Below, in pieces: positions 38,096 through 64,000 of a stretch of DNA of 64,000 nt. The notes beneath the pieces were generated by a model. The model saw nothing but the letters and a program-made list of their open reading frames with translations. It did no database searches and was not told the DNA's origin. The stretch is taken from the NCBI GenBank assembly GCA_964016885.1, contig OZ024741.1, positions 100,006,001-100,070,000 of the forward strand, given 5' to 3'. Positions within the stretch are counted from its first letter, which is position 1, and each line of letters opens with the position of its first letter. The position numbers were made by a program, and so were the translations under genes. Origin of the DNA: Eledone cirrhosa (lineage: Eukaryota).

Positions 38096-38190
<95 letters not shown>
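38096..38190. repeat. (ATCT)n microsatellite, 5' flank of Tx1-like element A
   Basis: Direct reading. Confidence 0.98.
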
Positions 38191-38424
38191 GTAAAATCTA
38201 GCTGTCGTCTGTTCGATAGCGTAGACGTAATTCACTTCGCGCAGAAGTTTTGTTCCAATTTATTGCGGAAATTTTGTAAGTTTAATTTTAATTTTGATAC
38301 TATTGTGTAACTTTACCCCCGTCTGAACTGTTAGGCAGTGGGTCAGCTCATTTTCGCCCCTCCCAGGGGTGAAAAACCTGTTTTTAAAAATGTTGTTGCA
38401 TAAAATTTCAATCCTCTGGGAGAA

Positions 38425-40327
38425 ATGTTAAACGAAGCTAACGAAAATAGTGGTGGGTGGACAGCGGTAAGAGTTGTAAGCTCGCACGCTTTAGTCCCCC
38501 CTTCCTTCCCAACTAACGTCATAGAGAAGGAAAGAAAAAATAAAATAAAAACAGACGAATGTGCGGAGAAAAATGTCGACGAAAACACAAATCTGGAGAT
38601 TGATTCCAACAACAAAAAAAATATGAAAGAATTGCATGACAATATTAATACCACAAACAAAGAAACAACAAACACAAAAATAACATTTGAAAACAACAAC
38701 ATCATAACAGAAAGCAAAACAGACGACAAAGTCAACACCAATAACATCTCATTTGCACAAACAACAAAAAAATCTTTAACATACATACCTCAAAATATTT
38801 CAGATGTGGCACAAAGAATAAAAAACGCCAAACAATTCATAACTCAAGGAGAAAATGGAGCCTTGTCGGTAAAAATGCCCCAAGAACTCACCAAAGATAT
38901 TGAAAGTCGGACGGTCGTTTTCTGCACCATCAACAACATCTCAAAAAAGCCACAACAACCAACACAAGCAGAAATTAAAGCGGTACTTAGAGAAGTAATT
39001 AATGAAGCCACTTTCATAAGAAGAGACAGGCTCTATGGAAGCCTGGCCATATTATGAAGAACGAATCGGCGGCAAAAAAATATGCTTTGTCGCCGATTCG
39101 TACGACAAAGTTTACCTTTTATCCATCTTATATGGGTAAAAGAACTCAGCGCATATGGCTGGATGCGATGATGCAAGATATGGACTACTGCTGGCTCATA
39201 GCTGGCTTCGTCGATCCAGCGAATGACAACGTGATTTCCATTGGGAAAACCACAGGCAATGCGTTCAGTGGAACAGGTATAGAACTTGTAGTGCAAATGA
39301 AGCCTGAACGCATTGCCCAAATACCCGACAGAATCCTATAAGAGGGCCACGGGTATATAAACATTAGCGTGGATGGGAGAAGGCCGTCCTGTCATATCTG
39401 TGCAGGCAGAGGGCACCTGAAGGCGGCTTGTCCCCAACTCAACAAGAATAAAACCCTGCTACCAACACCAGCTCCACCACCACCACAACAGATAAACAAA
39501 CAACAAAACTCAGTCTCACCCAACCTGTCCCTCCGTAAAACTACACCACCACCACAGCACAAACAGACACAACACATTACCCAAAAACAAAACACAGTGC
39601 CACCCAACCCCTCACTCAATAAAACAACACAACCACCGCAGCCACAACTCACAACACAGTCTAACATAGTGACATCCATCTCCCCGACAAAGAAAATTAA
39701 CACGGAAACATTACCAGCAAACATACCTCTTCCCTCCAACACTGAAGATAACCCAACGAATTCGGAGGAAGAAACGGAGTCCTTCAGACAGAGTAAAAGG
39801 AAAAAAACATGTGCAAAACACACAAGGCCAAACAGCCCCTACCCAAATGTCAACACAATCCAACAAAACACAAAACACCCCTCCAGCAACAAACAAAACC
39901 AAACCTGCCCCTCCTCTTTTCGAAACACTCACACCATCTGAAAAAAAGACATTTCACTATACTTACATCAACAGAAACAATAATAAATTAAATGAACTCA
40001 TAAACAATAACACTTCGGTACAAACCGAAGGGGTAAAGTTTGTTTCTTCAGAAATCTACCCACATTTAAAATTAATAAAGATCCCAATGAACCTCTACCA
40101 AAAACTAAAAGAGGATTTTAAGGAGGACGTAGGACCACCCTCTGTCAAACCCATAAACCGCGTCCTCCTAAAAAGCTTCCCCCCTCCCCTTCCCCTCCCC
40201 ACACAACTCCAAACACCCCAACCCCACCACACACTGACGACCCCACACCACCACAAGACACGCCTTCACCCAACACCCCGACCCCATGGAAGTCGTGCGA
40301 CCCGAACCCCGGGAAGCAGAAAGGTAG
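38425..40327 (+). pseudogene. Element A ORF1 (RRM-like region, CCHC knuckle), disrupted
   Basis: Fragments starting at 38425, 39054, 39369 and 39811 are colinear with B ORF1; CHICAGRGHLKAAC. Confidence 0.85.
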
Positions 40328-40360
40328 GTCTCTACACTCTCCTTTGGCTTTGCCGCCCAC

Positions 40361-43300
40361 ATGGATGTGTTAAGAGTAGGATGTTTGAATGCACGTGGCC
40401 TGGGCTCAACTTGGAAGCAAGCAAAGCTTCTAAATGCCCTCAGGTCACGTGGTATAAATGTAATGGTTATCTGTGAGACTCGGATCAGCGTCGTGCGGCA
40501 GCTGGCTCTCACCTTCGATGACTTTGAGGGGCACGTATCTCTCTGTCAACCTGGAGGAGGGGGTGGGATTGTCGTACTGCTGGAAAAACACCTGGGTCTC
40601 GCCGTACATGTTGTTCACTCGGACCCGGAATGTCGTTTGTTGGTGCTAGACGTTGGCAGTAGTGGAGGTGCGGCCTTGAGACTGGTTGCCGTCTTCTCCC
40701 CTTTCGGAGATGAACGACCCGACCTCTTCCACCGTCTGGAGACTTTTCTGGGAACGTCGCGTTCCCTGCTTCTAGATGCACGTTGGGACTATGCAGGAGC
40801 ATGTCCTAATAGAGGGGGGTGTAACAGCCTCAAAGGGTTACTCGACCGTTTTAACTTGGTCGATAGATATCGTCTAGGTTTTCCAACTGTGCCAACCTGG
40901 ATTTGGACGAACCACAGTGGTCAATCTAGATCGTACTTAGATAGATTCTTAGTTAGAAGTAAGGATAGGGACATATTAAGCTGTCCAGAAATGCTCACGG
41001 TTGGCTATACAGATCACAAATTAGTGAGCTGCGTAGTCAACCTCGAGAGAACACATAGACAGGGTCCCGGTTACTGGAAACTTAATTTGTCTTTACTGGC
41101 AAAAGAGGCTTACAGAGACCGGATTAGCAGATTAGTTAAGGAGAGGTTGACGGGTGCATCTCTCAAAAGAGAGATTAGAACAGAATCAATAAGTTATAGC
41201 AAGATGTTAGCTGCCGATAGGAATAGGAACGAGATAGAATTAACAGGTAAATTAGAAGAGGCAATCAAGAGCGAAGATGTGGCCAGAGTGCTGGCATCGA
41301 GGACGGCCTTGAGCCAGTTTTTCGATGCAAAGCACGAAGGCTGCGTCATTCGAAGTAAAATACGTGCTCTAGGTAATGAGGGGGCCAAAGCCGTTGGCTG
41401 GGCCCGCATGACAGAAGCTAAGAGTGGAAATCGATCCACCATCCGGTCTTTGCAAGACGAGGATGGACAGGTGATCCGGAAGCCTAAACAGATGTGCGAG
41501 GCCTTTCAAAGGCACTTTCCCCGATTGTTCGGGGAGACGGGGGTCCCGTCGGGGACGTGGATTTCGGTCCATACATCGACGGGCTGCCGCGTCTCTCAAG
41601 CAAAGAGGCAGAGTCCTTCGAGGGCCCAATCTCGGCTGATGAGATCGGGGATGCGCTGAGCCAATGCAGCAGACGCAAATCTCCAGGTCTTGATGGTATA
41701 CCTTACGAACTTTATTTAGCAATGCCGGTCTTTTCTCCGAACTCCTCGAAGCACTCTACTGCAATTGGCAGCAGAACGGGAGAATTTCTTGTTCTGTAGC
41801 CAGGGGCGTAGTCTCGCTGGTGAGGAAGGACGAGAACAAGGGGGATAGTATAAATAATTTTCGGCCCATATCTCTGCTAAACACAGAGTTAAAGATTTTG
41901 GCCAAGGTGTTAGCAAAGAGGTTGGCGCTTGTCGTGGGTGGCCTGGTGGGAGATGCGCAGACATGTGCTATCCCATCCAGGTCCATTCACGACAACCTCC
42001 ACGTCATGCGATACATCTTAGAGAGGGTTGGCAACAAACCCGGCTTCGGGGGGAGCCCTGATCAACTTGGGTCAGTCTAAGGCCTTCGATAGGGTCGACC
42101 ATGGTTACCTGGATGCGGTGCTAGCGGCGGCTGGGTTCGGTCCTGTTTTCAGAGGCTGGATCACTGCCTTACATAGCAACCACATCTGTTCTAGGATCAA
42201 GGTGAATGGCTACCTTTCGAAGCCGTTCGAAATCACACGATCCATTCGACAGGGGTGAGTGCCCTCTCTCCTCCCTTCTGTACGTATTGACTCTCGAGTC
42301 TTTACTGAGGAAGTTTGAGTTGTTGCAGGGTATCCCCCTAGAACCAGGATTGAGCAAAGCGGTGTCGGGCTACGCCGATGACGTAACAGTATAGTGTCGA
42401 CCGACTCGGAGATCGAGGCGATCGGTACCTTACTGGAGGAATACGAAAGGTTGTCAGGAGCGAAACTGAACCGAGAAAAATCCATCGGGCTGCAACTCGG
42501 AACGTGGAGAGGCAGACCGATGCCTCCCGATGGTGTCGTCGGACACTGGACGGAGGGCCCGGTGAAGTTGCTCGGGGTCTGGTTTGGACCGGACCTCCAG
42601 GTGGAAAGGAACTGGGGCGAGGTTACGAACAAGGTGTTTGCACTGACCCAGAAATGGGCCAAGTGTAAGCTGTCCCTGAAAGGTCGGGCGGAGGTAGCGA
42701 ACATTTACATAGCGTCCGTCACCTACTACCGCCTGACTGTCGTGCCTTGCCCTAAGGATACACTCACCACCATGGAACGCATGCTCTTGCAATTTCTTTG
42801 GAAGAAGCGCCCTCCTATGGTGAGAAGATTCATCTGCTGCCAACAACCTTCGAAAGGAGGGCTGGGGATGCCGTGGTTGATGATGCGTAGGCACGCATTA
42901 AGGCTACGGCACCTACAGGTATTCCTCACTGGTCAACCGGTGTGGGCTCCGTTCGTGAGACGAGCCTTTCCGAGACTCGTCTCGCTCACCGAGCTGCAGT
43001 CCTGGGTCAAGCAAAGATCCGGAAAACTGGGCGACTTGCACACTGAGTGTGCCCAGGCGCTCAGGGCTCTCTGGCAAGCGGGACCGGCCATCGGTGGAGA
43101 ATCCACCTCGTCATTCTTTAGAGGGCTGGTGGCTAGCAGGGGCGATGACACCATTGGAGAGTCGCTGGACATAGAAGAAGACGACCTGGCCAGACTGTTC
43201 GGTAGGACTTTCGGCCCGGGACCAATGGACAACTTCCAGAAGTTACTGGCCTGGCAGTGCTACCGGGGGGCTCTACCCGTTCGAGAAAAGCTCTACAGAC

Positions 43301-43748
43301 ACGGGCGCCAGGGCAGGGATCCCTCGAAAAAGATTTGCCCTAGATGCGTGCGTCACGAAGAAACCGTTGCGCACGCATTGGTGCACTGTCCGGGCGTGGC
43401 TGGTGGGGCTACGCCGAACGACTGCTGTCGCGGGTGGCGCAGATTCGATTGACCGTCGAGTCCGTGATGACAATCAAGTCGCCTCCCCTCTTCACATAGG
43501 AAGCAAAGGCGGTTTTTCTGTGCGTAATAGCCATGTTGAAAGAGGTTGTTTGGTGGACACGATTGAAAGGTCTGAGGTCAGGCAACTTCCTCTCTGGCCA
43601 TAGTCTGGTCTACTTCTTCCGATATCACTTCGGATGAAGGATAAGAATGGAGAGAGAGGTGCTTGGCCACAGGCAGTTTTATGAAAGGTGGGTGATAGTG
43701 GCGAGAATGGCTCGTGTAAATGGTCCTTCTCTGTATACCATCCTGTAG
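40361..43748 (+). pseudogene. Element A ORF2 (APE-RT-CCHC), disrupted
   Basis: Multiple frameshifts; the APE GDWN motif is deleted (SRSLLL|DARWD); YADD present. Confidence 0.92.
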
Positions 43749-43962
43749 GTAAAGAAGTGAAGGAGAGGGGAGCACCTTCTCCATGTGCTCCCCGGGCAAA
43801 GGATTGCACACTTTTTCGGGGGTGTGTGCAACCCCCATCACATCCCCTCGCTTTTGAGGTTGTTTTTGATTATTTTCATTTTATAACCTTTTTACTCGGT
43901 TTTATGTAAACTCCCCCTTTGTATTTGTCCCTTCTTATTATACCTTTATGGTAAATAAAGAA

Positions 43963-43975
43963 ATCTATCTATCTT

Positions 43976-44026
<51 letters not shown>

Positions 44027-44033
44027 CTCTATC
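43963..44033. repeat. (ATCT)n microsatellite between elements A and B
   Basis: Direct reading. Confidence 0.98.
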
Positions 44034-44250
44034 AGTCGTGTGTCACTTCGCGGAGAAGTTTCCGTTAATTTATGTAAGGAAAAAACGTGAGTTTTTAGTT
44101 CAATTTTATATCATTGTGTAACTTGACCACCCGTCTGGACCTTCAGGTGGTGGGTCAACTCATTTTCGCCCCTTCAGGGGCGGAATATCCGTTTAAAAAA
44201 TTTTTCTCCATCGAATCTTGGAAAAAATATTGTAAAATTTTGATTACGTT

Positions 44251-46167
44251 ATGAACGCTGCGTCCAACGATAATGGTGGTGGAGAGGCGGTAAGACTACA
44301 AAGCTCGCAGTCAACAACGTCTTCTTCACTAGATACTATAGAGATGGAAAGACAAAATGAAAATAAAAAAACGAATTCACATCCAAACAACACAAATGAC
44401 ACCAAACAGCTCAATGACAACAAAAATAACAGCAAAACCAATAATGATGATAAAAGCAACAATGATAACAACAACAAAGAAAAAAATAAAGACAACGCCA
44501 ATAACACCAGCATCAAAGACAACAACAACACCAAGGAAAATACGGATGATACCAACATCGGTGACAACAAGAATAACAACAAGAATAACAACAATAATGA
44601 CAACACCACCAATACGGATTCCACAAAGAAACCAAAAATCTCCTTTGCGGAGAAAGTTCAAAAGAAAGAACAATTGATATATCTCGACATAACAAATGCT
44701 GAACACCTTTTAAAGGACGCTAAGAGATATGTCACCTTCGAAAAAAATGGTGCTTTCAGCATCAATTCTCCGGTAGAAATTCGCAAGGAAACTGCTCTCA
44801 AAACGATAGTTTTTAGGACAGTTTCCAATTCTACCCGAAAACCAGTCCAATTGTCACAGAAAGATATTGAACTGGTTTTCAAAGATTCAATGAATGATAT
44901 TGCATTCATTCAAAGAAGCAAACTTTTTGGGAGTATTTCGGTACTGATGAAGGATCAATTGACGGCCCAAAATTACTCTGTGTCGCCAATTGTATCCAAC
45001 CTGTACACCTTTTTCCCTACATACATGGGAAAAAGGACACAAAAGATCAGAATCACAAGTGTCACACCAAAGGTGAACATATGGTGGATACTGTGCGGCT
45101 TCATCAATTTTGATGAAGACAGAATACTGTCAGTAGGCAAGTCCCCCAGAGATGTATTCAATGGGACTAGCATTGAAGTTCTGGTGCAAATGAGCCCAGA
45201 GCGAATAGCTATGATCCCACAGCGTGTACTCCTGGACGGACTTACCTACATAAACCTTTCGGTTGAGGGTAGGCGGCCTTCATGTTACCATTGCTTTAGC
45301 AGGGGTCACCTGAGGGCTTCCTGTCCTAAACTAATGAACCAAAAAAAGGCTCTTCTGCCAACACCCATCAAAACAACACAACCACCAACACCACCACTAC
45401 AACAACAACACCAACACACAAAAATAACCACAACAAACACAGTCCCACCCAACCTCACTCCACCTAAAACCACTGCAAAATCACATACAGACACAACAGC
45501 TCCCCAAGACATACCCCTCCCCAATCACACAGACGATACAACAGATGAGGCTATCTCGCCATCACCCAGTGAAGACGAGGGAGAACCCCATCGCTCGAAA
45601 AGAAAGAAAAGACATCACAAAAGCAAAAAACCAGCAAACACTACCACAAACATACAACCACCAACACAAACAACAAAAATATCACAAACAAAACCCCCAC
45701 CTCCTGAAAACAAAATACCTACAACAAAACGAAAGCACACACAAGAACTACAGACAAAAACAAACACAACACAAGAAAATTACACTTACACTTACATAAA
45801 CACTGAAAACAAAACACTAATGGAGACCATTACGAACGACCCTTCGGTTTTCACCGAAGGGAAAACTTTCGCCCACTCTATAAAAAATAGCAAAAAAATG
45901 AACCTAAAACTGATTAGGGTCCCTATACAAACTTATAGGTCCCTAAAAGAAACATTTGAGAAGGATGTGGGGAATTCCTGCGTGAAACCACTCAACCGCG
46001 TCCTTCTCAAATGCCTCCCCACCCCAGACACCCCCATCCCACCAGACCCCACCCCACCAAACATCTGCGTCCCCACCCCACCGGAAACCACCACCCATCC
46101 AGACAACCCCTCCAACACCCCCATGGAAATCGTGCGGCCTGGTCCCCAGGAGGCGAAGGGTGAGTGA
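44251..46167 (+). CDS. Tx1-like ORF1 nucleic-acid-binding protein, 638 aa
   Basis: Open ORF with N-rich N-terminus, RRM-like region (RSKLFGSISVLM), C-x2-C-x4-H-x4-C (CYHCFSRGHLRASC), P/T-rich linker and a conserved C-terminal block. Confidence 0.9.
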   Translation: MNAASNDNGGGEAVRLQSSQSTTSSSLDTIEMERQNENKKTNSHPNNTNDTKQLNDNKNNSKTNNDDKSNNDNNNKEKNKDNANNTSIKDNNNTKENTDDTNIGDNKNNNKNNNNNDNTTNTDSTKKPKISFAEKVQKKEQLIYLDITNAEHLLKDAKRYVTFEKNGAFSINSPVEIRKETALKTIVFRTVSNSTRKPVQLSQKDIELVFKDSMNDIAFIQRSKLFGSISVLMKDQLTAQNYSVSPIVSNLYTFFPTYMGKRTQKIRITSVTPKVNIWWILCGFINFDEDRILSVGKSPRDVFNGTSIEVLVQMSPERIAMIPQRVLLDGLTYINLSVEGRRPSCYHCFSRGHLRASCPKLMNQKKALLPTPIKTTQPPTPPLQQQHQHTKITTTNTVPPNLTPPKTTAKSHTDTTAPQDIPLPNHTDDTTDEAISPSPSEDEGEPHRSKRKKRHHKSKKPANTTTNIQPPTQTTKISQTKPPPPENKIPTTKRKHTQELQTKTNTTQENYTYTYINTENKTLMETITNDPSVFTEGKTFAHSIKNSKKMNLKLIRVPIQTYRSLKETFEKDVGNSCVKPLNRVLLKCLPTPDTPIPPDPTPPNICVPTPPETTTHPDNPSNTPMEIVRPGPQEAKGE

Positions 46168-46200
46168 TCTCTTTTCCTCTTTTAACTTTTCAGCACCAAC

Positions 46201-49200
46201 ATGGCCAATATAAGAGTTGGATGTGTGAACGTACGCGGCCTGGGGATGCCCTGGAAACAGGGCAAACTCTTAAACGACCTCAGGTCGCACAGTTTGGATG
46301 TGGTAGCCATTTGCGAGTCCAGGATCCACGGCGAGCGACAGCTGGCCCCCATCTTCGATGACTTTGAGATCTACGCATCTCTCTGTCAACCGGGGGGTGG
46401 GGGCGGAGTTGCCGTTTTGCTGCGGAAACACCTGGGCCTCGTAACACAGACGGTACATCTGGACCCGGAGGGTCGACTGGTGGTCCTAGACGTTGACGGT
46501 AGTGAAGGTGGAGCGTTCAGGCTGGTGGCCGCATATGCCCCATCCGGGACACCGCGGCCAGACTTCTTCAAACGTCTAGAGACTTTTCTGGGAACGTCCC
46601 GCTCCTTGCTTTTAGTGGGGGACTGGAATGGAATCCTAGATGCACGTTGGGACTATGTGGGAGCATGTCCCGACAAAGGGGGGTGTAACAGCCTCAAACA
46701 GTTAATCGACCGATTTGACCTGGCCGATAGATATCGACTAGATTTTCCGACTGCGCCAATGTGGACGTGGAGTAATCGTAGCGGAACATCTAGATCGTAC
46801 CTAGATAGGGTTCTAGTTAGAAATAAGGATAGGGACATGTTAAGCTGTCCACAAATGTTCATGGTTGCCTATTCAGATCACAAACTAGTGACCTGCATGG
46901 CCAACCTTGATAGAACCCATAGACAAGGACCCGGCTACTGGAAGCTGAACTTGTCGTTACCGACAAGCAAAGCCTACAGTAGACGGATTAGCACTTTAGT
47001 TAAACAGCACTTGACAGGGGCCATTGTCAACAACAGATGGTGGTACTCTCTCAAGAGGGCAGTTAGATTAGACTCGATAGTTTTTAGTAAAGAATTAGCG
47101 TTAGATAGAAATAGAACCGAGAAGGAACTGGTAGATAAAGTAGAAGAGGCAATTAGAAGTGGCAACGTAGCCAGCGTGCTAGCAACGAGAACGGCCTTGG
47201 ACCAGTTCTTCGACGCAAAGCACGAGGGCTGCGTTGTCAGAAGCAAAATACGTGCTCTGGGAAACGAGGGAGCCAAAGCTGTTAGCTGGGCCCGGGTGAC
47301 GGAGGCAAAAAGTGGCAACAAGTCCACGATTCGGTCTTTGAAGGACCAAAACGGACGCGTGATACGTGAGCCGAAGCAGATGTGTGCGGCTTTTCAGCGG
47401 CACTTTGCTCGGCTGTTCGGGGGGAGCGGCGCGCCGGGAGAGGCTATGGATTTCGGTCCATACCTCGACGGCCTACCGCGACTCTCGGACAGTGGGGCGA
47501 AGTTCTGCGAAAAGCCGATTTCAGCCACTGAGATAGGGGACGCGCTGAGCCAATGCGGCAAACGCAAATCTCCAGGTCTCGACGGTCTACCCTACGAATT
47601 TTACGTAGCAATGCCGGACTTATTCTCCGGTCTCCTGGAAGCGGTCTACTGCAACTGGCAACAGAACGGGAGAATTCCCAGTTCTGTAACCGGGGGCGTG
47701 GTCACACTAATCAGGAAGGACGAGAATAAGGGGGATGACATAGGCAACTTCCGGCCCATAACTCTGCTAAACACAGAGTTACAGATTTTGGCCAAGGTGT
47801 TGGCAAAGAGGCTGGCGCTTGTCGTCGAGAACCTGGTGGGAGAAGCGCAGACATGCGCGATCCCGACCAGGTCCATACACGACAACCTCCACCTCATGCG
47901 ATACATCATAGAGAGGGTAGGGTGTAAACCCGGCTTCGGTGGGGCCCTGATCAACTTGGATCAGTCTAAGGCTTTCGATAGGGTTGACCATCGTTACCTG
48001 GATGCGGTGCTCGAGGCGGCAGGCTTCGGACCCGTGTTCAGGGGCTGGATTGCTGCAATGCACAACAGCAACATCTGCTCAAGGGTCAAGGTGAACGGTT
48101 ACCTCTCGGAGCCGTTCCATATTACGCGATCCATTCGACAGGGATGCCCTCTCTCCTCCCTTCTGTACGTACTGACTCTCGAGCCACTACTGCGGAAGCT
48201 GGAGCTATTGCAGGGCATCCCTCTGGAACCGGGACTGCGGAAAGCGGCGTCGGCCTACGCCGACGACGTGACAGTAATGGTGACGAGCGCCTCGCAAATC
48301 GAGGAAGTCGGCACCTTACTAAAGGAATACGAAAGTCTCACAGGAGCGAAGCTGAACCGGGACAAGTCCATCGGTTTGCAACTCGGATCGTGGAGAGGCA
48401 GACCGATGCCTTCCGATGGCGTCGTCGGACGCTGGACGGAAGGACCGGTAAAGCTGCTCGGGGTCTGGTTTGGTCCGGACCTCCAGGTGGAGAAGAACTG
48501 GAACGAAGTGACGGCCAAGGTGTTTGCACTCACCCAGAAGTGGGCCGAGTGCAAACTATCCTTGAAAGGTCGAGCGGAGGTGGCGAACACTTTTATAGCG
48601 TCCGCCATCTACTACCGCTTGACCGTCGTGCCTTGTCCAGCCAAAACGCTCGCCAAAATGGAGCGCGCCCTCTTCCAATTCCTTTGGAAGAGGCGGGCTC
48701 ATTTGGTAAGAAGATCCATCTGCTGCCAACACCCTTCTAACGGAGGGCTGGGGATGCCGTGGTTGACGATGCGCAAACACGCGCTCAGGCTGCGGCATCT
48801 CTACGTATTCCTCACCGGACAACCGGTGTGGGCCCCGTTCGTGAGGCGAGCCTTCCCACGACTCGTCTCGCTGACCGAGCTGCAGTCCTGGGTCAAGCAG
48901 AGACCGAGGAAAATGGGCGACTGGCACATCGAATGTGCTCAGGCGCTCACAGCCCTCTGGCAGGCGGACCCAGCGGTCAGTGGAGACTCCACTTCGTCAT
49001 TCTATAGAGGGTTGGTCCGCAGCAAGTGCGACGACGCGCTCGGTGAAACTCTGGGCGTGGAGGAAGATGAACTGGCCAGTCTGTTCGGTAGGACCTTCCG
49101 CCCGGGACCGATGGACAACTTCCAAAAGTCCCTGGCCTGGCAGTGCTACCGAGGAGCTCTACCAGTTCGAGACAAGCTCTACAGACATGGGCGCCCGGGC

Positions 49201-49638
49201 AGGGACCCTGCAAAAAAGATCTGTCCGAGGTGCGTGCGAGACGAAGAAACCGTCGCGCACGCATTCATACACTGCCCGGGCGTCACTGACCTGTGGGGCT
49301 ATGTAGAACGACTATTGTCGCGGGTGGGACCAATCCAGTTGACCACCGAGTCCATTGTCATGATCAAACCGCCACCCTCCTTCAAAAACGAAGGAGAGGC
49401 GGTTTTCCTTTGTGTGATAGCTATGGCGAAAGAGGTTGTATGGTGGACAAGGTTGAAAGGGCTGAGGTCAGACACCTTTCTCTCCGGCCAACAACTGATT
49501 CTTTTTTTCAAATACCACTTTGGAAGAAGAATCAGGATGGAGAGAGAGGTGCTGTACCCCAGCAAGTTTTATGAAAGGTGGGTGAAAGTGGCGAGAATGG
49601 CCCGAGTGAATGGGCCTTCTCTCTATATCAGCCTGTAG
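46201..49638 (+). CDS. Tx1-like ORF2 polyprotein (AP-endonuclease, reverse transcriptase, C-terminal CCHC), 1145 aa
   Basis: APE: NVRG, CES, YAP, GDWN, LDR, SDH. GPGYWKLN; KSPGLDG. RT: LDQSKAFDRVDH, RQGCPLS, YADD. CPRC...ETVAHAFIHC. Confidence 0.97.
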   Translation: MANIRVGCVNVRGLGMPWKQGKLLNDLRSHSLDVVAICESRIHGERQLAPIFDDFEIYASLCQPGGGGGVAVLLRKHLGLVTQTVHLDPEGRLVVLDVDGSEGGAFRLVAAYAPSGTPRPDFFKRLETFLGTSRSLLLVGDWNGILDARWDYVGACPDKGGCNSLKQLIDRFDLADRYRLDFPTAPMWTWSNRSGTSRSYLDRVLVRNKDRDMLSCPQMFMVAYSDHKLVTCMANLDRTHRQGPGYWKLNLSLPTSKAYSRRISTLVKQHLTGAIVNNRWWYSLKRAVRLDSIVFSKELALDRNRTEKELVDKVEEAIRSGNVASVLATRTALDQFFDAKHEGCVVRSKIRALGNEGAKAVSWARVTEAKSGNKSTIRSLKDQNGRVIREPKQMCAAFQRHFARLFGGSGAPGEAMDFGPYLDGLPRLSDSGAKFCEKPISATEIGDALSQCGKRKSPGLDGLPYEFYVAMPDLFSGLLEAVYCNWQQNGRIPSSVTGGVVTLIRKDENKGDDIGNFRPITLLNTELQILAKVLAKRLALVVENLVGEAQTCAIPTRSIHDNLHLMRYIIERVGCKPGFGGALINLDQSKAFDRVDHRYLDAVLEAAGFGPVFRGWIAAMHNSNICSRVKVNGYLSEPFHITRSIRQGCPLSSLLYVLTLEPLLRKLELLQGIPLEPGLRKAASAYADDVTVMVTSASQIEEVGTLLKEYESLTGAKLNRDKSIGLQLGSWRGRPMPSDGVVGRWTEGPVKLLGVWFGPDLQVEKNWNEVTAKVFALTQKWAECKLSLKGRAEVANTFIASAIYYRLTVVPCPAKTLAKMERALFQFLWKRRAHLVRRSICCQHPSNGGLGMPWLTMRKHALRLRHLYVFLTGQPVWAPFVRRAFPRLVSLTELQSWVKQRPRKMGDWHIECAQALTALWQADPAVSGDSTSSFYRGLVRSKCDDALGETLGVEEDELASLFGRTFRPGPMDNFQKSLAWQCYRGALPVRDKLYRHGRPGRDPAKKICPRCVRDEETVAHAFIHCPGVTDLWGYVERLLSRVGPIQLTTESIVMIKPPPSFKNEGEAVFLCVIAMAKEVVWWTRLKGLRSDTFLSGQQLILFFKYHFGRRIRMEREVLYPSKFYERWVKVARMARVNGPSLYISL

Positions 49639-52060: not shown

Positions 52061-52075
52061 TTGTTATTGTTGTTG

Positions 52076-52122
<47 letters not shown>

Positions 52123-52329: not shown

Positions 52330-54308
52330 ATGGCTGAGCCACGCCCTCCAGCGATATGTCTGCTGTCGTGCGACAACGACGTAATAGTTGAGAGGAGCGC
52401 TACAGCGAAATTAACACAAATTGATAACACAAACACCACCACAAACAATGTAAACAAAGACACCAATGATACCAATGAGAACTCTAATTTTGAAAAAAAT
52501 GACAGTAACAGCAACAACGGAAATACAGATAACAAAAAAAAAATAACAAATGCAACAACTATATCAACACCATTAACATGAAAACAAATAGCGACAACAT
52601 CAACAGCAACAATACCAACTTCATCGAGAACAACGGTGGCAACAAAGACAACAATGATAACAGCGACAGTGATAACAACAACACCAACAGGAACAACGAC
52701 AACAACAAAAACAGCTCCAACGAAAACAAGAAGAACACTTTCGCTGCGGCAGCAGCAAAAAAGAGGCCATGCTTCAACATAGACCTCTCAAACAAAGATG
52801 AAAAGTTGGCCCGGGCATGGAAGCTCATCAAGCAAGAGCAAACCTAGCCCAACTTAACTGTCCCGGTAGAAGTTATTGAGGCAGTGGAGCGCAAAACGGT
52901 GCATTATAGATGCATCTCAGCACAAACCAAAAGGGCAGCTTTAATCCCACAAGAAGATGTCGAAGTCGCGCTGAGGTGCATCAGAGAAGACACCCAATAC
53001 ATAGAGAGGGGCAGACAGTACGGCACCATTTCGGTGTTGTTCAAGTCAGAAGCCCTCGCTATGAAACACGCTATGAGTCCTTGCAAAACCAGCAAGGTCA
53101 TAATGTACCACACCCACATGGGAAAAAGAACGGCCCGTCTCCGCATTCCCAGAATCCCACCAGTACTTGACATGGGGTGGCTTCTGGGATGTGTGATTGT
53201 GGAGGGGACGGATACCGTCCCTATAGAAGTGACCAAAACGGCCAGAGAGGAATGGTCCCGGTTGACCTGGAGATCCTCTCCAGATCAGGCCCGAGAATGT
53301 GAAGACAATCCCGGACCAAATCCGCCTTCAGAATGGGACGGTCATTCGCATTATGACCGAAGGCAAAAGGCCGCAGTGTTTTGTTTGTGGGGGAAAAAAC
53401 CCATCTGCGAGCCTTCTGCCGTCAACTGCTGAAAGAGGCAAGGGCTCGAAAGGCCCCACTGCTGCCGACGCCGGCGCGAGGACCACAACCAACACCAGCA
53501 CCAGCAAAACCACCAACAACAACACCAATAGAAAGACCACCACCAACATTGACGAAACAGAGGGAAGAACCGAGAACAGCTGTCAAATTCCCCCTCCCCG
53601 CAAAATACACACACCAATAAAACCATAAAAATACATACAGACACACTTACAGACCCATCATCTACCAGTAGTGAAGATAAGGGAAAACCAAAATCCCCCA
53701 AAATACAAAAAAGGAAACACAAAAAGAAAAAAAAAACTCAACAAAGCACGAAATCACCCCTAATAAAAAACGCAGACACCAGCCACGCAAACATCTCTCC
53801 AACAACACCAACATCAACACCACTATCACCATCACCAGAATCCCCCAAACGCAAACAACCTAAACAGACGCAAGAACAAATATACACACAAACATCTGAA
53901 ACTACAGACACCGCACTCACAACAAACACAGACACAACCGAAACAACACCACCAAAACCACCACCACCACAGGCACGCAAACAAATAAAATCACACCAAC
54001 AAAACATACAAAACTTCGTGCTCGTCAGGAGGGCCAACAAGGAACTGATGGCCCTCGTAGCACGAAGTGAAAATATACAAAAAGAGGGGGACATTTTTAA
54101 ATCGAGCACATTTCGCGTGCCGGAAGATTTGGTTCTGGTGCGAATGTCGATCGATTTATACAAAGAAATACGAGACAGCTTTCCACTGGATGTGGGAACC
54201 CCGAAAGTAAAACCTACTTCAAGACTTTTAAAGAGGTTCCCAAAACAAACCCCACAAACTATGGAGGTCGATCAACCCGACGTTCACAAGAACCCGGAAG
54301 GTAAGTAA
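52330..54308 (+). pseudogene. Element C ORF1, disrupted
   Basis: RGRQYGTISVLF, EGKRPQCFVCG..THLRAFC and C-terminal FPLDVG across several frames. Confidence 0.85.
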
Positions 54309-54340
54309 ACCTTTCCTCTCTCTCTTTTTAACCTGCCAAC

Positions 54341-57300
54341 ATGGCCGTATTAAGAGTAGGATATTCGAGGCCCGGGATCGTCCTGGAAGCAGGGTCACCT
54401 GCTAAACGACCTCAGGTCTCTAGAAATGGATGTAATTGCCGTCAGTGAGACCAGGATTTCCGACACGCTCGCACTAGCCCCCATTTTCGACGACTATCAG
54501 ATCTTTGCATCTGTTAGCCGGCCGGGAATGGGAGGCGGGGTGGCAGTGCTGTTTAGGAAAGGCCTGGATCTCGAGGTAAGGTCGATCTTCCGTGACCCGG
54601 ACGGGAAGTTGGTGGTCCTGGACGTGAACAATAACGAAGGTGGTGCCTTTAGACTGGTGGCCGTCTATGCTCCTACTGGGGCAGGACGGCCGAACTTCTT
54701 TAGACGCCTGGAAGAGTTTCTGGGCTCGCCTCGCCCTTTACTGTTAGCGGGGGACTGGAACGGCATCTTAGACGCCCGCTGGGACTGTGTGGGAGTATCC
54801 TATAGGAACGGGGGATGCAAAGGCCTCAAGAACCAGATCAGCCAGTTCCAACTGTCTGACAGGTACCGACTAGATTTCCCTAATGCGCCAGTGTGGACCT
54901 GGGCTAACCGCATAGGGTCATCTAGATCGTATATAGACAGGATATTCATTAGGAAAATAGACAGAAATAGTGTAAGCTGTCCACGTTTTGAAACGGTCGA
55001 CTATTCAGATCACAAGTTTGTGATCTGTATGGTCGACCTAGATAAGACGCGTAGGTTAGGACCTGGTTACTGGAAGCTAAACATGTCATTTCCGGCACGT
55101 AACGCGTACAGGGACAAGGTAAACTATTTAGTTAAGAAAAAGTTGACAGGGGGAGTCGTCAACAATAGATGGTGGAGGGCTCTCAAAAGAGAGATTAGAG
55201 GAATGTCGATAGAGTTTAGCAAAGAAGCAGCGTTAGAGAAAAATAGAAAGGAGGAGAGTTGGTAGATAAGTTAGACGATGCTATGGGTAGTGGCATTGCA
55301 ACTGACGTGTTAGCGGCGAGAATGGTATTAGACCATTTCTTCAATGCGAAACACGAAGGCTCCATTGTCAGAGCTAAGGCGCGTGCTCTGAGAAACGAGG
55401 GAACCAAAGCTGTTCGATGCACCCACGCGGCAGAGGCGCGGCGTGGTAATAAATCTACGATTCGGCTTTTGACGGACCGAGACGAACACGAGCTGAGCGA
55501 TTCCAAGAGGATGTGTGAGGCCTTTCGCCAACATTTTGCTCGGTTGTTCGGTGGAAGTGGCGGGTCAGAGATGGTGGCGGACTTCAGTCCCTACCTCGAT
55601 GGCTTGCCGCAACTCTCGACGGCTGACGCTGGGCGCTGCGAAAGGACAATTACTTCAGCCGAGATTCAGGATGCCCTTGTCGGCTGCATGAGGCGCAAGT
55701 CACCCGGTTTGGATGGTCTGCCCTACCACTTTACCTAAATATGCCAGACTTGTTCTCCAATCTCCTCGAAGCCCTCTACTGCAACTGGCAGCAAAACGGG
55801 AGTATTCCCAGTTCTGTGAGCCGGGCGTAGTGACGCTGATAAGGAAAGACGAGAACAAGAGGGACACATTAGACAATTTCAGGCCCATAACTCTGCTCAA
55901 CATATAGTTTAAGATTTTGACCAGGGTGCTAGCGAAGAGGTTGGCGCTTGTCGTCGGGGATTTGGTTGGGGAGGCGAAAACTTGCGCAATCCCAATCAGG
56001 TCCATACACGAAAACCTCCACCTAATGCGATACATCATAGAGAGGGTAGGGTGTAAACCTGGCTTCGGTGGGGCTCTGATCAATTTAGATCAATCGAAAG
56101 AATTCGATAGGGTCGACCATCGGTACCTGGAGGCTGCCCTCAAGGCGGCTGGCTTCGGCTCCGTCTTCAGAAGCTGGATCGCTGCAATGGACAGCGGCAC
56201 CTGCTCGAAGGTAAACATTAATGGCCGCCTCTCGGAACCGTATCAGGTCTCCCGATCGGTACGTCAAGGGTGCCCTCTCTCCTCCCTTCTGTACGTATTG
56301 ACTCTGGAGCCTTTACTGCGGAAGCTGGAGCTGTTGCAGGGCATCCCGTTCGAACCGGGACGCGGAAAGGCTGTGTCGGCTTATGCGGACGACACCACCG
56401 TGATGGTGTCGGACACCTCAGAAATGGAGGTGGTCGGCAACTTATTGGAGGAATATGAAAGGTTGACGGGAGTAAAACTTTACCCGGAAAAGTCGGTGGG
56501 CTTGCAACTCGGCACCTGGAGAGGCAAGTCCGTGCCGTCCAACAGCGTGGTTAGGCGCTGGACGGTCGGACCGGTAAAGTTTCTAGGGGCTTGGTTTGGG
56601 CCAGATCTCCAGGTGGATAAGAATTGGGACGAAGTGACGGGCAGGGTAGCCAGTGTCACCCAGAAATGGGCTGGGATGAAGCTATCACTGAAAGGTCGGG
56701 CGGAGGTGGCGAACGCGTACATCGCGTCCGTCATCTACTACCGTCTGACTGTCGTCCCTTGCCCCCGTTTGCGCCTCGCCATCTTGGAGCGGCTCCTCTT
56801 CAAATTCTTGTGGAGGGGCCAGATTCCGCTGGTGAGGCGGTCCATCTGCAGCCAGCACCCTCTACGTGGAGGGTTGGGCATGCCGTGGCTAATGATGCGC
56901 AGGCACGCGCTGAGGCTGCGGCATCTCCAGATATTCTGCCTAAACGGTGAACAGGTGTGGTCGCCGTTTGTCAGACGGGCCTTCCGCAGCTAGTTTCTTT
57001 GACTGAGCTGCAGTCCTGGGTCAAGAAGAGACCGAGACTTGGTGACTGGCATCTGGAATGTTGCCAGGCACTCACTGCCCTCTACTAGGCGGGCAATGCG
57101 GTCAGTGGATCTTCCACTCTCGAGTTCTATAGAGGATTAGTGGGTGGAAAGTGCGACCACGCACTCGGAGAGGCTCTGGGAGTCAACGAAGTCGAACTAA
57201 CCAGTCTGTACCGGAGGACTTTCGAGCCGGCGACGATGGATAATTTCCAAAAATCCATCGCTTGGCAGTGCTACCGGGGGGCACTGCCAGTTCGAGATAA

Positions 57301-57755
57301 ACTCTACAGGCACGGAAGTGCTGTCAGACGTGCCTGCCCTAGATGAGCGCAGAGCGACGAAACCGTTCTGCACGTACTCGTCCAGTGTCCGTGCATTACT
57401 GGCTTGTGGAGTTATATTAAACAGCTGTTGTCGCGTGTAGAACGGATCCGGCTATCGGCCGAGTCCATAGTGAAGATCGACAAGCCGCCTTCTTTTGGCC
57501 AGGAAGGGCAGGCACTTTTCCTCTCTCTGGTGGCAGTAGCGAAAGAGGATGTATGGTGGACGAGGTTGAAAGGACTGAAGACAGACACTTTTCTCTTCGG
57601 CCAATCCCTCATCAACTTTTTCAAGTTTCACTTGGAAAGGAAGGTGAAGGTGGAGAGAGAAGTGCTTCCCCCTAGTACGTTTGCTGAAAGGTGTGTGAAT
57701 GTGGCGAGAATGGCCCGTGTGAGTCGGCCTACTCTGGTCATGAGGCTGTCGGTAG
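54341..57755 (+). pseudogene. Element C ORF2, disrupted
   Basis: APE (GDWN, SDH) and RT (RQGCPLS, YADD) fragments with stops and frameshifts. Confidence 0.92.
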
Positions 57756-57997
57756 GTAAATTTGTGGAGGAGAGGGTTGCCCTTCCAGGGTGCTCTCGAA
57801 GCGTCGGGTCGTTCAGTATTGAGCGAACCCTGGGTGGTCATACCCCCTATTGGGGAATTTTTTCTTGTAATTTTCTTGTTACTTTATTGTTACTTTGTTA
57901 TTTCATATTGTTTACTCGATTTTTCTGTAAAACCCCACTGTCCCAGTCTTTTGTATTGTCCCCTATATGTCGGCCCTTGTGGCCAATAAATGAAATC

Positions 57998-58018: not shown

Positions 58019-58228
58019 GGCGACCTACGTAGGAAATCGTATTATCGTGAGCTCCGCAAAGGTTTGTTATTTCCGTTTGTTTAAAAATTGCCATTTATGG
58101 AACATTTTATTGTTAACTGTTTATAAGCACACATACATTGTTTTCCGAAAAGGACACCTAAAAAGATTGGGGCCTTGTGCCCAAAATTTTAACTTTTATT
58201 ATTATCAAAAAATTTCTTTGAAAAAAAA

Positions 58229-60213
58229 ATGGCTACTTCACCTCTGCACGAAGCAGCTGAAAGCCTTCCTCACAAAATAACACCTCACACCGACACCACC
58301 ATTGTAAATGTTACTACGTTTGCCAACACAAAAAAAAAAATATAAGCAGTAGCAATATTTTAAATTTGTCTCAGGCAGACATTCATTTCCCGCCATTACC
58401 AATGACTGCAGGTGTTAAAGCCTCCACCACCACCACCACCGCGACAACCACCACCACCACCACCACCGCGACAACAGAAACAAAACAAGAAAAAAATAAA
58501 TTAACTCGTGATGTCGAAATGAAATCAAGCAAAATGGTCTCTTCCCCACCAAAGACGACTGACGTCACCACCACAACTGAAACTAAAATTAATATTAACG
58601 ATAGCAACAACAACAACAATGACATTATAAAACCCCCTCTCAGTTTCGCCAGAGTAGCAAAACAATTCGAAGCATTTACCGTAACTCAAGAAGATTTAGA
58701 AAATGCCAAACAAATGGTAAAGAAAGATGGGTACAGGGTCAGCCTCCCCCCCCCCCCCACCTAATAAAATGGAGCATCGGCGCCTATGCACCGTGTCGTA
58801 TAGAACAATAAATGTAAAATCGCGCCGAGTGGAACGGGCATCCGAGTCCCAAATCCAAAAAGCTTTGGGACATGTGTGGGCAAGAAAAACCCACATCAGA
58901 CGTGGGCAAAAGTATGGAACCGTGGATGTGTTCTTTGAAACACCAGAGGAGGCTAGAGAACACTCCATGGCCCCATTAAAAAGTGACGACTTCACACTCG
59001 TCCCAAGCTATTGTGGCCAGAGACTTGTAAAGATCAGGGTGACCCACGTTCCACCGGCCATCGAAATTCCCTGGCTAATAGCGGCTGTCCTCGCCGGCAT
59101 CGAGGCCAGCACGAAAATAATAACAATAGCAAAAGAAAAGCAGGAAAACTGGTCCGGATCTGGGATGGAGCTCCTGATCCAAGCGGACCAAAAAAGCATT
59201 GAGGAGATCCCAGAGGTAATAGACCTCACTGACGGCAGCCACCTCACGGTAATTGTCGAGGGCAGAAGACCTAGGTGTGTCGTTTGTGGTGAAGGAACCC
59301 ACCTAAGGGCCTTCTGCCCTCAGGCTAAAAGGTTGAGGCCACCTCTCCTACCCACCCCAGTGACACAACCATCAACACCACCAGTAGCAGAGATGCCAGC
59401 AACAACTGTAGCAGCAACAACAGAAGCAACTATAACAGCAACAACCCCAGCAACAGTAGCAAAACTAACACCACTACCACCACCAGCAAAACCAACACCA
59501 CCACCACCCGACGCTTCAGAACTAGCACCAGCGCCTACACCATCCACCACACCACAACCAAAACTAACGGCTGTGGAGGATTTTCCACTCCCCGGCCTAT
59601 CACAACTGGAGACAGATTGTGACGACGAGGAGTGGGAAACGATATCCAGAAAAAAAAAAGAAACCAAAAAAGAAAAAATTCTCTTCCTTCCCCCTCCAAA
59701 AACAAAATACAGAGGGAAACAAATAAACTAAGAAACAAAAAAGTTAGGACAGATATGCCACCATCCACACCAGCATCAACAACCCCATCAACCCAAACAC
59801 CAACACCATCACCATCATTAACTCCAACACCACCATCACCTACACCACAAAAGTCACCAAAATGCGAAACAGAAACAAACCCACAACAAACGCAAACAAA
59901 ACAAAACAACCAAAACGATACACACTACACAGCATTAAATTTGAACAAGCAATTATTGCACTACATCCAACACAACACCAGCATCACAGAAAAAGACTAC
60001 ACAACAACCCCAAAATTCACGCCACCTCCACACATACAAATCACTCGCATCACACAGAAAACGTACATGACACTAAAACAAAAATTCCCCAAAGACATCG
60101 GAGACTTCCGACAAGCACTCTCCAGGAGGATTTATAAGGACATCCTTCCTGAGGAGGCCACAAGCAGTGAAAAGGATGGAAAAACCGTCCTTCCCCTACG
60201 AGAAGTAAGGTAA
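58229..60213 (+). pseudogene. Element D ORF1, frameshifted near homopolymer runs
   Basis: RGQKYGTVDVFF, CVVCGEGTHLRAFC and FPKDIG in consecutive frames. Confidence 0.85.
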
Positions 60214-60247
60214 GTGGTCTTTCCCATCTTTTCCACTCCTTTTCAAC

Positions 60248-63200
60248 ATGACCTCACTCAGAATAGGCAGCATAAATGCACGTGGCTTGGGGTCGTCATG
60301 GAAGCAGGGCCACCTGCTCAACGACCTCAGGTCACTAAACATAGATGTAGTGGCCATCAGCGAGACCAGAATCTCCGAAGCACAGGCTTTCGCACCGATC
60401 TTCGGCGGCTACGATGTGTACGCATCTCCCAGCCGTCCGGGATCGGGGGGAGGAGTTGCTGTGCTTTTTCGGAGAGGTTTGGATCTTGCCATACGGGCCA
60501 TCTTCCTGGACCCAGAAGGTAAGTTGGTGGTGCTGGACGTGACCAGCGGAGACGGGCAAGCTTTCAGGTTAGTGGCCGTCTATGCCCCGACAGGAGCAGG
60601 GCGGCCTGATTTCTTCCGGCGTCTGGAGACCTTTCTTGGAACGTCCCGCTCTTTAGTGTTAGTGGGCGACTGTAACGGGATCTTAGATGCACGCTGGGAT
60701 TGTGTGGGATTAGTGGATAGGGAAGGAGGGTGCAAGAGTCTCACCAACCTGCTCAGACGTTTTGAACTGTCTGACAGGTACCGAATGGATTTCCCGAATG
60801 TACCAATGTGGACTTGGACAAATCGCATAGGGTCATCCAGATCATATCTAGATAGAGTATTTTGTAGGGAAATAGATAGGTCTAGCATAGGCTGTCCACA
60901 ATTCAAAATAGTCAGCTACACGGACCACAAAAACCTGATCTGTGTGCTTGACTTAGATAGGCTTCATAGACAAGGACCCGGCTACTGGAAGCTAAACGCG
61001 TCCTTACCAGCGCGCAAGGCCTACAGAGACCGGATTAGCGAACTAGTTAAGCGGGCGTTGACGGGGGCCATCGTCAACAACAAGTGGTGGTTTGCTCTGA
61101 AAAGAGCAATTAGAATAGAGTCCATTAGGTTTAGTAAGACTTTAGCAATAGAGAAAAATAGAGCAGAGGGAGAATTAGTTAGAAAATTAGATGAGGTGCT
61201 TAGCAAAGGCATCGCGACCGACGTACTTGCGGCGAAATTGGCCCTTGACCAATTCTTCAATGCAAAGCACGAAGGCTGCGTTGTCAGAGCTAGGGTGCGT
61301 GCTCTCAGACACGAGGGGACGAAAGCCGTTCAATGGGCCCGAGTGGCGGAGGCGCGTCGTGGCAACAAAGCCACATTCCGGTCTTTGGTGAACCACGACG
61401 GGCGCATGCTACTCGATCCCGGGCAAATGTGTGAAGCTTTTCAGCGACACTTCGCTCAACTGTTCGGGGGCAGTGGCGGGCCGGTTCGAGGGATGGACTT
61501 TAGTGTCTACCTCGACGGACTGCCGCGGCTTTCGGCCACTGAGGCGGAGTGTTGCGAAAAGCCGATAACAACCGCTGAAGTACGGGATGCAATGACTAGT
61601 TGCACAAGGGGTAAATCGCCTGGTTTGGATGGTCTGCCCTATGAATTTTACGTACAAATGCCAAACTTGTTCGGGGGCCTCTTGGCGGACGTCTACTGCA
61701 ACTGGCAATAGAACGGGAGAATTCCCAGCTCTGTGAGCCGAGGAGCGGTGGCGCTGCTGAGAAAGGATCCGAACAAGGGGGATAACATAGATAATTTTAG
61801 GCCCATAACTCTGCTAAACACAGAGTTCAAGATTTTGGCCAAGGTGCTAGCAAAGAGGTTGGCGCTTGTCGTTGGTGGTCTGGTGGGAGAGGCACAGACA
61901 TGCGCCATTCCCGACAGATCCATCCACGACAACCTCCACCTCATGCGATACATCGTAGAGAGGGTAGCTAAGGAACCTGGCACGGGTGGGTCTTTGATCA
62001 ATTTAGATCAGTCGAAAGCCTTCGATAGGGTCGACCATCGTTACCTAGCGGCAGTCCTGAGGGCGGCTGGCTTTGGGCCCGTCTTCAGAGGCTGGATTGC
62101 TGCCATGCACAGCGACATCTGCTCTGTAGTGAGAGTGAACGGTCACCTTTCGGAACCGTTCAACATCATGCGCTCGGTCCGCCAAGGATGTCCCCTCTCG
62201 TCCCTATTGTACGTATTGACTTTCGAGCCATTACTGCACAAACTGGAGACGTTGAGGGGGGGTCCCGCGCGAACTAGGATGCGGAAGATCCGTGTCAGCA
62301 TATGCCGACGATTTCACCGTAGTGGTGTCGAACGCCAAACACATCGAGGCGATCGGCACTACACTAAGAGAATACGAAGCGGTGACAGGAGCAATGATCA
62401 ACCAGGAAAAGTCAGTGGGCCTGCAGCTCGGCACCTGGAGAGGCAGGTCCATGCCGTCCAACAGCGTCGTCGGGCGCTGGACGGACGGACCGGTTAAATT
62501 GCTAGGGGTCTGGTTCGGTCCAGACCTCCAGACGGACAAAAACTAGGACGAGGTGACGAGCAGGGTGGCTTCTCTCACCCAGAAATGGGCCGAGAGAAAG
62601 CTATCCCTGAAAGGTCGAGCGGAGGTGGCGAATGCGTACATCGCATCCGTCATCTACTACCGCCTGACCGTCGTACCTTGTCCTAAGCCCCGCCTGACTG
62701 CGCTGGAGCGTTTGCTCTTTCGCTTCTTGTGGAAGGGACGCGCTCCGATGGTCAGGCGGTCCATCTGCTGTCAACACCCGCTACGTGGAGGGCTGGGCAT
62801 GCCGTGGCTGATGATGCGCAGACACGCGCTCAGGCTACGACATCTCCACCTCTTCCTCGACGGTGATCAGGTGTGGTCGCCGTTTGCAAGACACGTTTTT
62901 CCCCAGCTCGTCTCCTTGACGGAGCTGCAGTCCTGGGTCAAGCGAAGACCGAGAGGGAGCGCTTGGAGACTGGAATGTCTTCAGGCGCTCACAGCCCTCG
63001 ACCAATCGGGCAATGTGATCGGTGGAAACTCCACCTTGGCGTTCTATAGGGGATTAGTGGAGGGGAAGAGCGACGACGTACTTGGAGAAACTCTAGGCGT
63101 CGACGAAAATCAACTAGCCAATCTCTTCGGAAGGACTTTCGGGCCGGGGCCTATGGACAACTTCCAGAAATCCCTGGCCTGGCAGTGCTACCGAGGAGCT

Positions 63201-63668
63201 TTGCCAGTTCGGGATAAACTCTACAGGCATGGAGGTGCCGTCAGCCGGGCATGTCCGAGATGCGCGCAGGGCGACGAAACCGTCCTGCACGCACTCGTCC
63301 AGTGTTTGAGCATTGCTGACTTGTGGGTTTATGTCGAACACCTGCTGTCACGTGTAGGACGGATCCAGCTATCAGCTGAGTCCATCGTGAGGATTGCCCC
63401 GCCCCCTTCCTTTAGCCTGGAAGGGCAGGCAGTTTTTATCTGTCTGGTGGCCATGGCGAAAGAGATAGTATGGTGGACACGTTTGAAAGGGCTGAAGACG
63501 AGCACTTACCTCTTCGGTGATGCCCTGATTAACTTTTTCAAATTTCATTTGAAAAGGAAAATCAGGGTAGAGAGGGAAGTGCTCTCTTCCCAGCATTTTG
63601 TTGAAAGATGGGTGAGAGAAGCAAGTATGGCCCGAATGAATGGGCCTTCTCTGAGTATGTGTCTGTAA
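60248..63668 (+). pseudogene. Element D ORF2, two premature TAG stops and one frameshift
   Basis: Stops at 61709 and 62544, frameshift in the G-run near 62260; otherwise colinear with B ORF2. Confidence 0.93.
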
Positions 63669-64000
63669 ATTAAAGGTGGAAAACTGGGAGAGGGCACTTG
63701 CCCTGGTTGTCAGGGCCACTGTGGTCTTTTAATGGGCTTTCTCCACAAATGTCCCTTGGAAGTCTCCCCCCTATTCGGGAATTTTTCTTTGTTATTTTAT
63801 TTCAACCTCTGTTTTTTTACACGCAGAAATGCCCATTTGTACCGTCCTGTATTGTCCTGTACTGTCCTTAATGTCTACTTTATGTGAACCCTTGTGGTTA
63901 ATAAAGAAAACATTATTATTATTATTACAGTTGCATTTATCTTGCTTTATGTTCATACGAGTTATAACCAAGTCACAACCAGTGACCTCAAGAGACAACA

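Follow-up and report, generated by a model that had tools for sequence, protein, structure and literature searches.

Several families of retrotransposons lacking long terminal repeats (non-LTR) are known to insert into microsatellites. Kibi and Koshi occupy (TC)n and (TTC)n in teleosts, respectively, and crocodilian Tx1 families prefer (TTCC)n or (TTTC)n (PMC4494074, PMC3812793). Besides TC, TTC, TTCC, and TTTC for Tx1, the reported microsatellite targets are AC and ACAY for the R1 group, TAA for Dong, and TG for Togen (PMC4494074, PMC3812793, PMC4640811). The subject of this work is a cluster of four long interspersed elements (LINEs), A, B, C, and D, in a stretch of 64,000 nucleotides of the Eledone cirrhosa assembly GCA_964016885.1 (contig OZ024741.1, positions 100,006,001 to 100,070,000), hereafter called the window. 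Like Kibi, Koshi, and the crocodilian families, they are elements, probably of the L1/Tx1 group, with an apurinic/apyrimidinic-type endonuclease (APE) that lie in microsatellites, but their targets are (TATC)n, (ATT)n, and, for a related family E, a minisatellite, instead of pyrimidine-only repeats. Dong, a member of the R4 clade, has a restriction-like endonuclease (RLE) and no APE; it shares its microsatellite with C and D, but A–D carry an APE.

Judging from the sequences compared here, it is very probable that A–D represent four families of one young group of non-LTR elements with two open reading frames (ORFs), whose copies lie in one orientation inside pre-existing microsatellites, which are (TATC)n in the case of A and B and (ATT)n in that of C and D. 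The likely cause is nicking by the APE of the strand that reads GATA or AAT. In their way of working, A–D resemble Kibi and Koshi. In the available portions of the literature searched, no APE element was reported to target TATC or ATT, Repbase and Dfam being outside that search; microsatellite targeting itself was already known from Kibi, Koshi, and Dong.

The Cluster and Its Arrays

All four elements are 5.7–5.9 kb long and lie on the + strand. The alternation of arrays and elements on a single strand, as laid out in the initial annotation, matches the Tandem Repeats Finder (TRF) calls and the element boundaries:

38096..38190 (+), (TATC)n target array preceding A; TRF, 23.8 copies, 100% matches
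38191..43963 (+), element A, full length but with stops and frameshifts in both ORF1 and ORF2; ends in AATAAAGAAA without poly(A); ~95% identity to sampled copies
43963..44033 (+), (ATCT)n array separating A from B; TRF, 17.8 copies
44034..49782 (+), element B, of the youngest family; terminal ~90 bp and 3′ target absent (normal end seen in other B copies)
44251..46167 (+), intact ORF1 of B (638 aa), with a CCHC zinc knuckle and no Pfam family
46201..49638 (+), B ORF2, intact, 1145 aa: APE, reverse transcriptase (RT), and zf-RVT (Pfam E-values 1e-12, 7.5e-27, and 3.8e-06)
49783..51025 (no strand), inverted-repeat element resembling a miniature inverted-repeat transposable element, truncating B and outside the Tx1-like system; 167-nt arms, 97% complementary
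52060..52125 (+), (ATT)n target array preceding C, imperfect at its start; TRF, 22 copies, 90% matches
52122..57997 (+), element C, full length, ORFs disrupted, of the oldest family; ends in AATAAATGAAATC; best other copies 90–93% identity
57998..58018 (+), (ATT)7 spacer between C and D, whose 21 nt match a target duplication in size; TRF
58019..63911 (+), element D, full length, ORFs disrupted in this copy; ends in AATAAAGAAAAC; family copies mostly 96–99% identity
63912..63927 (+), (ATT)5 remnant of the 3′ target of D
63928..64000 (−), probably the 3′ terminus, in reverse, of a LINE of RLE type (Dong/R4-like) that occupies the same array as D; flank as in loci L007, L009, L016, and L024

Among the four copies, both ORFs are intact in B only; APE, RT, and zf-RVT were detected by Pfam on the B ORF2 and on pieces of A, C, and D. 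B has no 3′ array because the inverted-repeat element replaces its last ~90 bp; this element also carries internal 108-bp repeats and a (TG)n. The array between A and B finishes in a TCTCTATC variant, which is found at the head of four of the five other full-length B copies as well. In the four loci whose flanks match the end of the window, the sequence continues into minus-strand RLE matches, and we infer the same for the window locus.

Families and Insertion Sites Across the Genome

The 3.0-Gb assembly was searched with 3′ pieces of each element, which gave 2021 candidates for D, 720 for A, 3266 for C, and 722 for B (not copy numbers); the best 40 of each were scored, and extra C and D copies were added through two short-query searches. 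Excluded were the window's own copies, L132 (whose flanks equal those of L131), five C loci found twice, unfetched hits (4 A, 3 B, 6 C, and 5 D), and hits without a locus, save 7 of 10 for B. Both ends were read in 24 A, 36 B, 48 C, and 54 D copies, that is, 162 copies besides those of the window.

A 5′ junction was scored as positive when the repeat typical of the family ran across it for 10 nt or more. Such a run was present in 16/18 full-length copies of A, 5/5 of B, 36/37 of C, and 37/38 of D, and in 4/6, 23/30, and 4/10 truncated copies of A, B, and D, respectively; with either a repeat or a duplication, the truncated copies amount to 6/6 for A and 25/30 for B. The full-length copies are the weaker evidence, since their 5′ repeats are possibly carried in part by the RNA. 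A second sample gave the repeat in three of four truncated D copies and in two of three D-like upstream neighbours (9 nt in the third). At no 5′ junction of the 162 copies was the repeat of the other class or a reverse-strand repeat observed; as background, runs of at least 10 nt occurred in 0.43% (TATC) and 0.5% (ATT) of 6000 random 34-nt windows drawn from the flanks and the window. Two features first noted in the window hold genome-wide: the repeat lies on the 5′ as well as the 3′ side, and A and B use (TATC)n, C and D (ATT)n. The repeat frequency in the flanks also exceeds the >20% reported as a criterion for target preference in the Tx1 clade (PMC4494074).

Nine copies that carried another ORF1, had a variant head, or contained an internal inversion were counted apart. 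They show no repeat where similarity to the reference stops, and their classification as truncated copies without a repeat was rejected; they are full length, and 9/9 have an array of their own class farther upstream, which need not abut the head in every one.

Every family has a fixed 3′ end a few bases past an AATAAA, without poly(A), followed by TATATCTATC in A and B and by ATTATT in C and D. When 243 distinct ends were clustered at 90%, nine multi-copy groups were obtained (five of TATC type, three of ATT type, and E), none of which mixed TATC with ATT. Target duplications were accepted when the two flanks matched exactly and the match included four or more non-repeat letters; they were found among the 162 copies in 9 A (13–21 nt), 5 B, and 1 C (18 nt); some short duplications in compound repeats are perhaps due to chance, and three of the B cases extend into the adjoining copy. 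They begin at TAT(C/A)T past the element's final TA, or at ATTA. At the unique sites L102, L122, and L084, the duplicated site comes directly at the element end or past the TA with no repeat tail before it, and therefore the repeat is the insertion target and not a tail made by the element, C being the weakest case. ATT arrays without C or D, which act as paralogous empty sites, were also found at the ends of RLE-type LINEs.

The view that A–D are independent insertions of different families was borne out. DNA identity in the ORF2 region is 77% for A/B, 75% for C/D, and 68–73% for the remaining pairs, each family has its own dispersed copies, and the ORF1 proteins are only 29–38% identical, so the four elements are not tandem duplicates. 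Mean pairwise identity over 30 hits per family was 100% for B, 99.97% for D, 98.6% for A, and 94.6% for C, and 40/40 scored hits of the B search were identical across 461 bp; B and D are therefore young and C is the oldest. A CX2CX4HX4C knuckle is present in the ORF1 of family copies of A, B, C, and D, and an intact ORF2 was found in family copies of A, B, and D (six such copies in D). In six loci (L194, L268, L275, L305, L189, and L146), a D- or B-type ORF2 is fused to a different ORF1 region, with the switch point of the D chimeras close to the ORF1 end, which suggests exchange of ORF1 between families. One full-length D (L182) has a 1.2-kb internal inversion, presumably resembling the outcome of twin priming. 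Words sampled from B were also found in sequencing runs labelled as other organisms (X4, a fraction of 0.63, the highest; X6, 0.37; X7, 0.36), pointing either to close relatives or to recent spread; no RNA run was among the listed runs containing B.

A family member lies within 200 nt of 9/24 A, 25/36 B, 13/48 C, and 14/54 D copies, always of the same class and strand, and in 39/162 copies a member's 3′ end is immediately upstream. The proposal that each insertion leaves a target for the next agrees with this class-matched stacking next to older copies, which holds genome-wide. In the window, B and D, being younger, would have landed in the arrays left 3′ of A and C, an order suggested by the different ages of the families. 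The 5′ arrays mostly lead into unrelated DNA, ends of short interspersed elements (SINEs), or RLE-type LINEs. Near C or D, the latter gave 45 locus-strand hits in 155 loci (some overlapping), of which 43 were opposite in strand; near A or B, 100 loci gave a single one. Those adjoining C and D we take, from their motifs, to be Dong-like.

A SINE of ~185 bp (L245:1662-1850; L343-L367) has a 3′ end like that of C and D. Its insertion sites are ATTAT, and 8 of the 22 scored loci (of 25) show duplications of at least 9 nt, two of these duplications being pure ATT. It is likely a partner of C and D with a looser target. ARAGORN found no tRNA gene in four SINE loci, so a tRNA origin is not shown. This pair resembles SINEU, reported to share its target preference with Tx1-Mar (PMC4494074), although here the partnership is one we infer from the C/D-like 3′ end, and the ATTAT target is looser.

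As for the remainder of the window, the TATC and ATT pairs are 2.3 kb apart (49782-52122), and nothing beyond chance was found to explain their proximity. The 3′ fragment of an RLE-type LINE (37179-38006, +) ends in (AAT)n 90 bp upstream of the A array. An old truncated relative, 74% like D and without a recognisable end or flanking array, is located at 27656-28995 (−), and RT pieces with a GIY-YIG-like frame, which we assume to be Penelope-like, are located on both strands at 9382-11612.

Classification, Family E, and Target History

The description of A–D as Tx1-like is supported in part. In its favor are the APE–RT–zinc finger arrangement, the CCHC ORF1 (a separate ORF1 with such a knuckle is a feature of the Tx1 clade), and the bit scores, as the B ORF2 (best named match Argonauta hians, 63%, which by itself suggests an octopod host) is 30% identical to Xenopus Tx1L (P0100, P14381) with 313 bits, against 173 bits for human L1. 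A grouping with Xenopus Tx1, on the other hand, was not recovered by the RT trees, which included no L1 proper and whose backbone is poorly resolved: A–E and unnamed relatives of ~40% identity form a clade of their own (100/99), apart from Xenopus Tx1 and fish Tx1-like proteins. Membership of A–E in the Tx1 clade is therefore likely but unproven. No labelled L1 outgroup was found; P0117, P0120, and P0284 score 188–257 bits against human L1, below the 263 of Xenopus Tx1. The unnamed relatives (P0003-P0067, ~40% like the B ORF2) make up a large clade, some clusters of which have hundreds of members, and a metagenome scan with P0006 for their flanks found no locus. No protein labelled Kibi or Koshi was present among the B ORF2 matches or the cluster members.

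Xenopus Tx1L has the same ORF2 domains as A–D and an APE reported to be sequence specific (PMC1950540), but it targets a DNA transposon, belongs to a supported clade separate from that of A–E, and has a hairpin loop two residues longer. Thirteen recently active L1-Tx1 families have been counted in Octopus vulgaris (PMC13282606, PMC8967140), and relatives of A–E are therefore probably present in octopus repeat libraries. The available text of the octopus repeat literature (PMC13282606, PMC8967140, PMC9115989, PMC10294476, PMC8869645) yielded no target analysis of such families, and the term "target" is absent from that of the L1-Tx1 annotation (PMC13282606).

Family E (L368-L409, e.g., L380 and L404) came from a search with the C-terminus of a distant relative and is 89% like B; one copy has an open frame of 1159 aa. 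On the 3′ side, E copies mostly adjoin a degenerate CT-rich minisatellite of ~33–37 or 70 bp, entered at a TATATC core. Among 12 copies fetched, 10/10 full-length ones have the minisatellite upstream and share ~20 target-like letters at the head, though the arrays differ, and the truncated L406 and L379 have duplications of 15 and 18 nt. A single sister copy, L374, has a TGTC-like 3′ flank instead of TATC, possibly a fourth target.

In the RT tree (IQ-TREE, 41 rows, one gene), A, B, E, and five sister copies form one clade (100/99), which is joined to C (95/98), with D, Argonauta P0002, and P0001 outside this grouping; B is outside A, and E is nested among the TATC families. From this topology, ATT is likely the older target, TATC probably arose once, and E would have moved later to the minisatellite. 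Of the two-pair scheme in the initial annotation, one target per pair stands, while the pairs are not sisters, C being nearer to A and B than D is. The hairpin loop of the APE was located by means of the RDGH tip in Tx1L (PMC1950540). At the tip of this loop, the TATC families and E carry S, C and D carry I or M; two further APE loops also differ between target classes. This correlation of loop and target is a single evolutionary contrast and not proof of cause.

Mechanism and Competing Explanations

Target-primed reverse transcription is established (PMC3747384). In A–D, the APE would nick the GATA- or AAT-reading strand and prime reverse transcription; the strand of this first nick is deduced from the insertion orientation, its exact phase being blurred by microhomology. 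A second nick 13–21 nt downstream would leave target on both sides, where later copies could stack head to tail. For the 5′ joining, the cut target end may pair with the cDNA, aided by target letters at the RNA 5′ end. Such base pairing is suggested by the variant heads of B, the ~20-letter heads of E, and the cut points of L093 and L157, which are truncated exactly at the first base of a downstream copy; as these downstream copies are only 86% and 90% like B, respectively, the two loci are not simple duplicates. In R2, co-transcription of the target is reported to strengthen targeting (cited in PMC4494074). The abundance of precise full-length copies, such as 26 of 30 D copies chosen solely by a perfect 133-bp 3′ end (including three with another ORF1), would follow from 5′ pairing of this kind; B, however, which is mostly truncated (30/36), is not accounted for by it.

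The same data could be read as an endonuclease that recognizes a short AT-rich motif, with arrays selected by pairing between RNA end and target or by ORF1, together with survival in harmless places, the 5′ repeat of C being largely carried by the RNA. This would agree with the duplications at non-array sites (L102, L125, L048, L117, and L084), with the SINE at isolated ATTAT sites, with the scarcity of the repeat in truncated C copies, and with E and B having different targets despite the same hairpin loop and 86% identical APE domains, from which it also follows that the loop is not the whole cause. We regard it as unlikely: class crossing was 0/162 although both motifs are AT-rich, the APE loops differ by class, and truncated copies, which lack the RNA 5′ end, are still in arrays (B 23/30, D 7/14). 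Moreover, it alters the cause of the preference, not the preference itself.

That the repeats are instead tails which the elements produce themselves, in the manner of RTE, L2, and CR1 LINEs, with those on the 5′ side being the tails of older neighbours, would suit the fixed repeat past the 3′ end in every family and the copies with a member's 3′ end upstream. The tail-only explanation is nevertheless very improbable and was rejected, being largely refuted by the repeats 5′ of truncated copies and by the unique sites, where the duplication starts right at the element end; in addition, most 5′ arrays lead elsewhere, and the 25/36 adjacent neighbours of B are not expected from random insertion. 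Tandem duplication or an assembly artefact is hardly credible as the origin of the cluster. Its head-to-tail layout and a few identical tandem units elsewhere (L119, L097, and L112) are what this would produce, but the DNA identity of 68–77%, the ORF1 divergence, and the dispersed copies of each family, with their different ages, are against it, and tandem duplication was rejected.

Several observations weigh against insertion by APE nicking into pre-existing arrays. The sampled copies are the best 40 of 720–3266 candidates and thus biased to young ones. At several A and B loci (L102, L125, L048, and L117), the site is a short motif or (TA)n instead of an array, and none of the 54 D copies had an exact duplication under the scripted rule, although a 28-nt duplication, followed by an extra piece resembling a C end, is seen by eye in L212. 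The repeats 5′ of full-length copies may be partly RNA-carried. The tabulation of both flanks proposed in the initial annotation gave no random 5′ flanks for A, B, or D, whereas for C it was mostly uninformative: truncated copies had the repeat in 1/9 and the repeat or a duplication in 2/9, and the one C-like upstream neighbour in the second sample had none (0/1). A reversed RLE LINE abuts two of the seven remaining truncated C copies and one D copy; the other truncated C copies without a repeat are unexplained. Finally, the target history depends on a single split in a single gene tree, and the loop shared by E and B, whose targets differ, also counts against a specificity set by that loop alone.

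More tentatively, and with doubts outweighing our confidence, we propose that this lineage may have gained microsatellite targeting independently of the fish Kibi and Koshi and been retargeted twice in one genome. The change from (ATT)n to (TATC)n would be tracked by I or M to S at the hairpin tip and by two other loop changes, and the later one to the 35/70-bp minisatellite would have occurred with the loop unchanged, via target letters on the RNA ends. If this is true, the intact, near-identical copies of B and D would be a natural series in which target choice by protein could be told apart from choice by RNA, with D and C insertions mostly being full length.

How APE-type retrotransposons gain or change sequence specificity is an open question, for which the known examples are far apart. 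Loop grafts in L1 are reported to have given partial answers only (PMC1950540), and the basis of microsatellite targeting has been described as not well understood (PMC3812793). Nearby families with different targets in one genome allow the testing of what sets the target of a retrotransposon, and swap tests are simple because the APE domains across three targets are 58–86% identical and intact ORF2s exist in A, B, and D. The presence of two LINE classes, on opposite strands, plus a SINE suggests that microsatellites in these genomes are a shared niche, which bears on repeat annotation and on the use of microsatellite markers.

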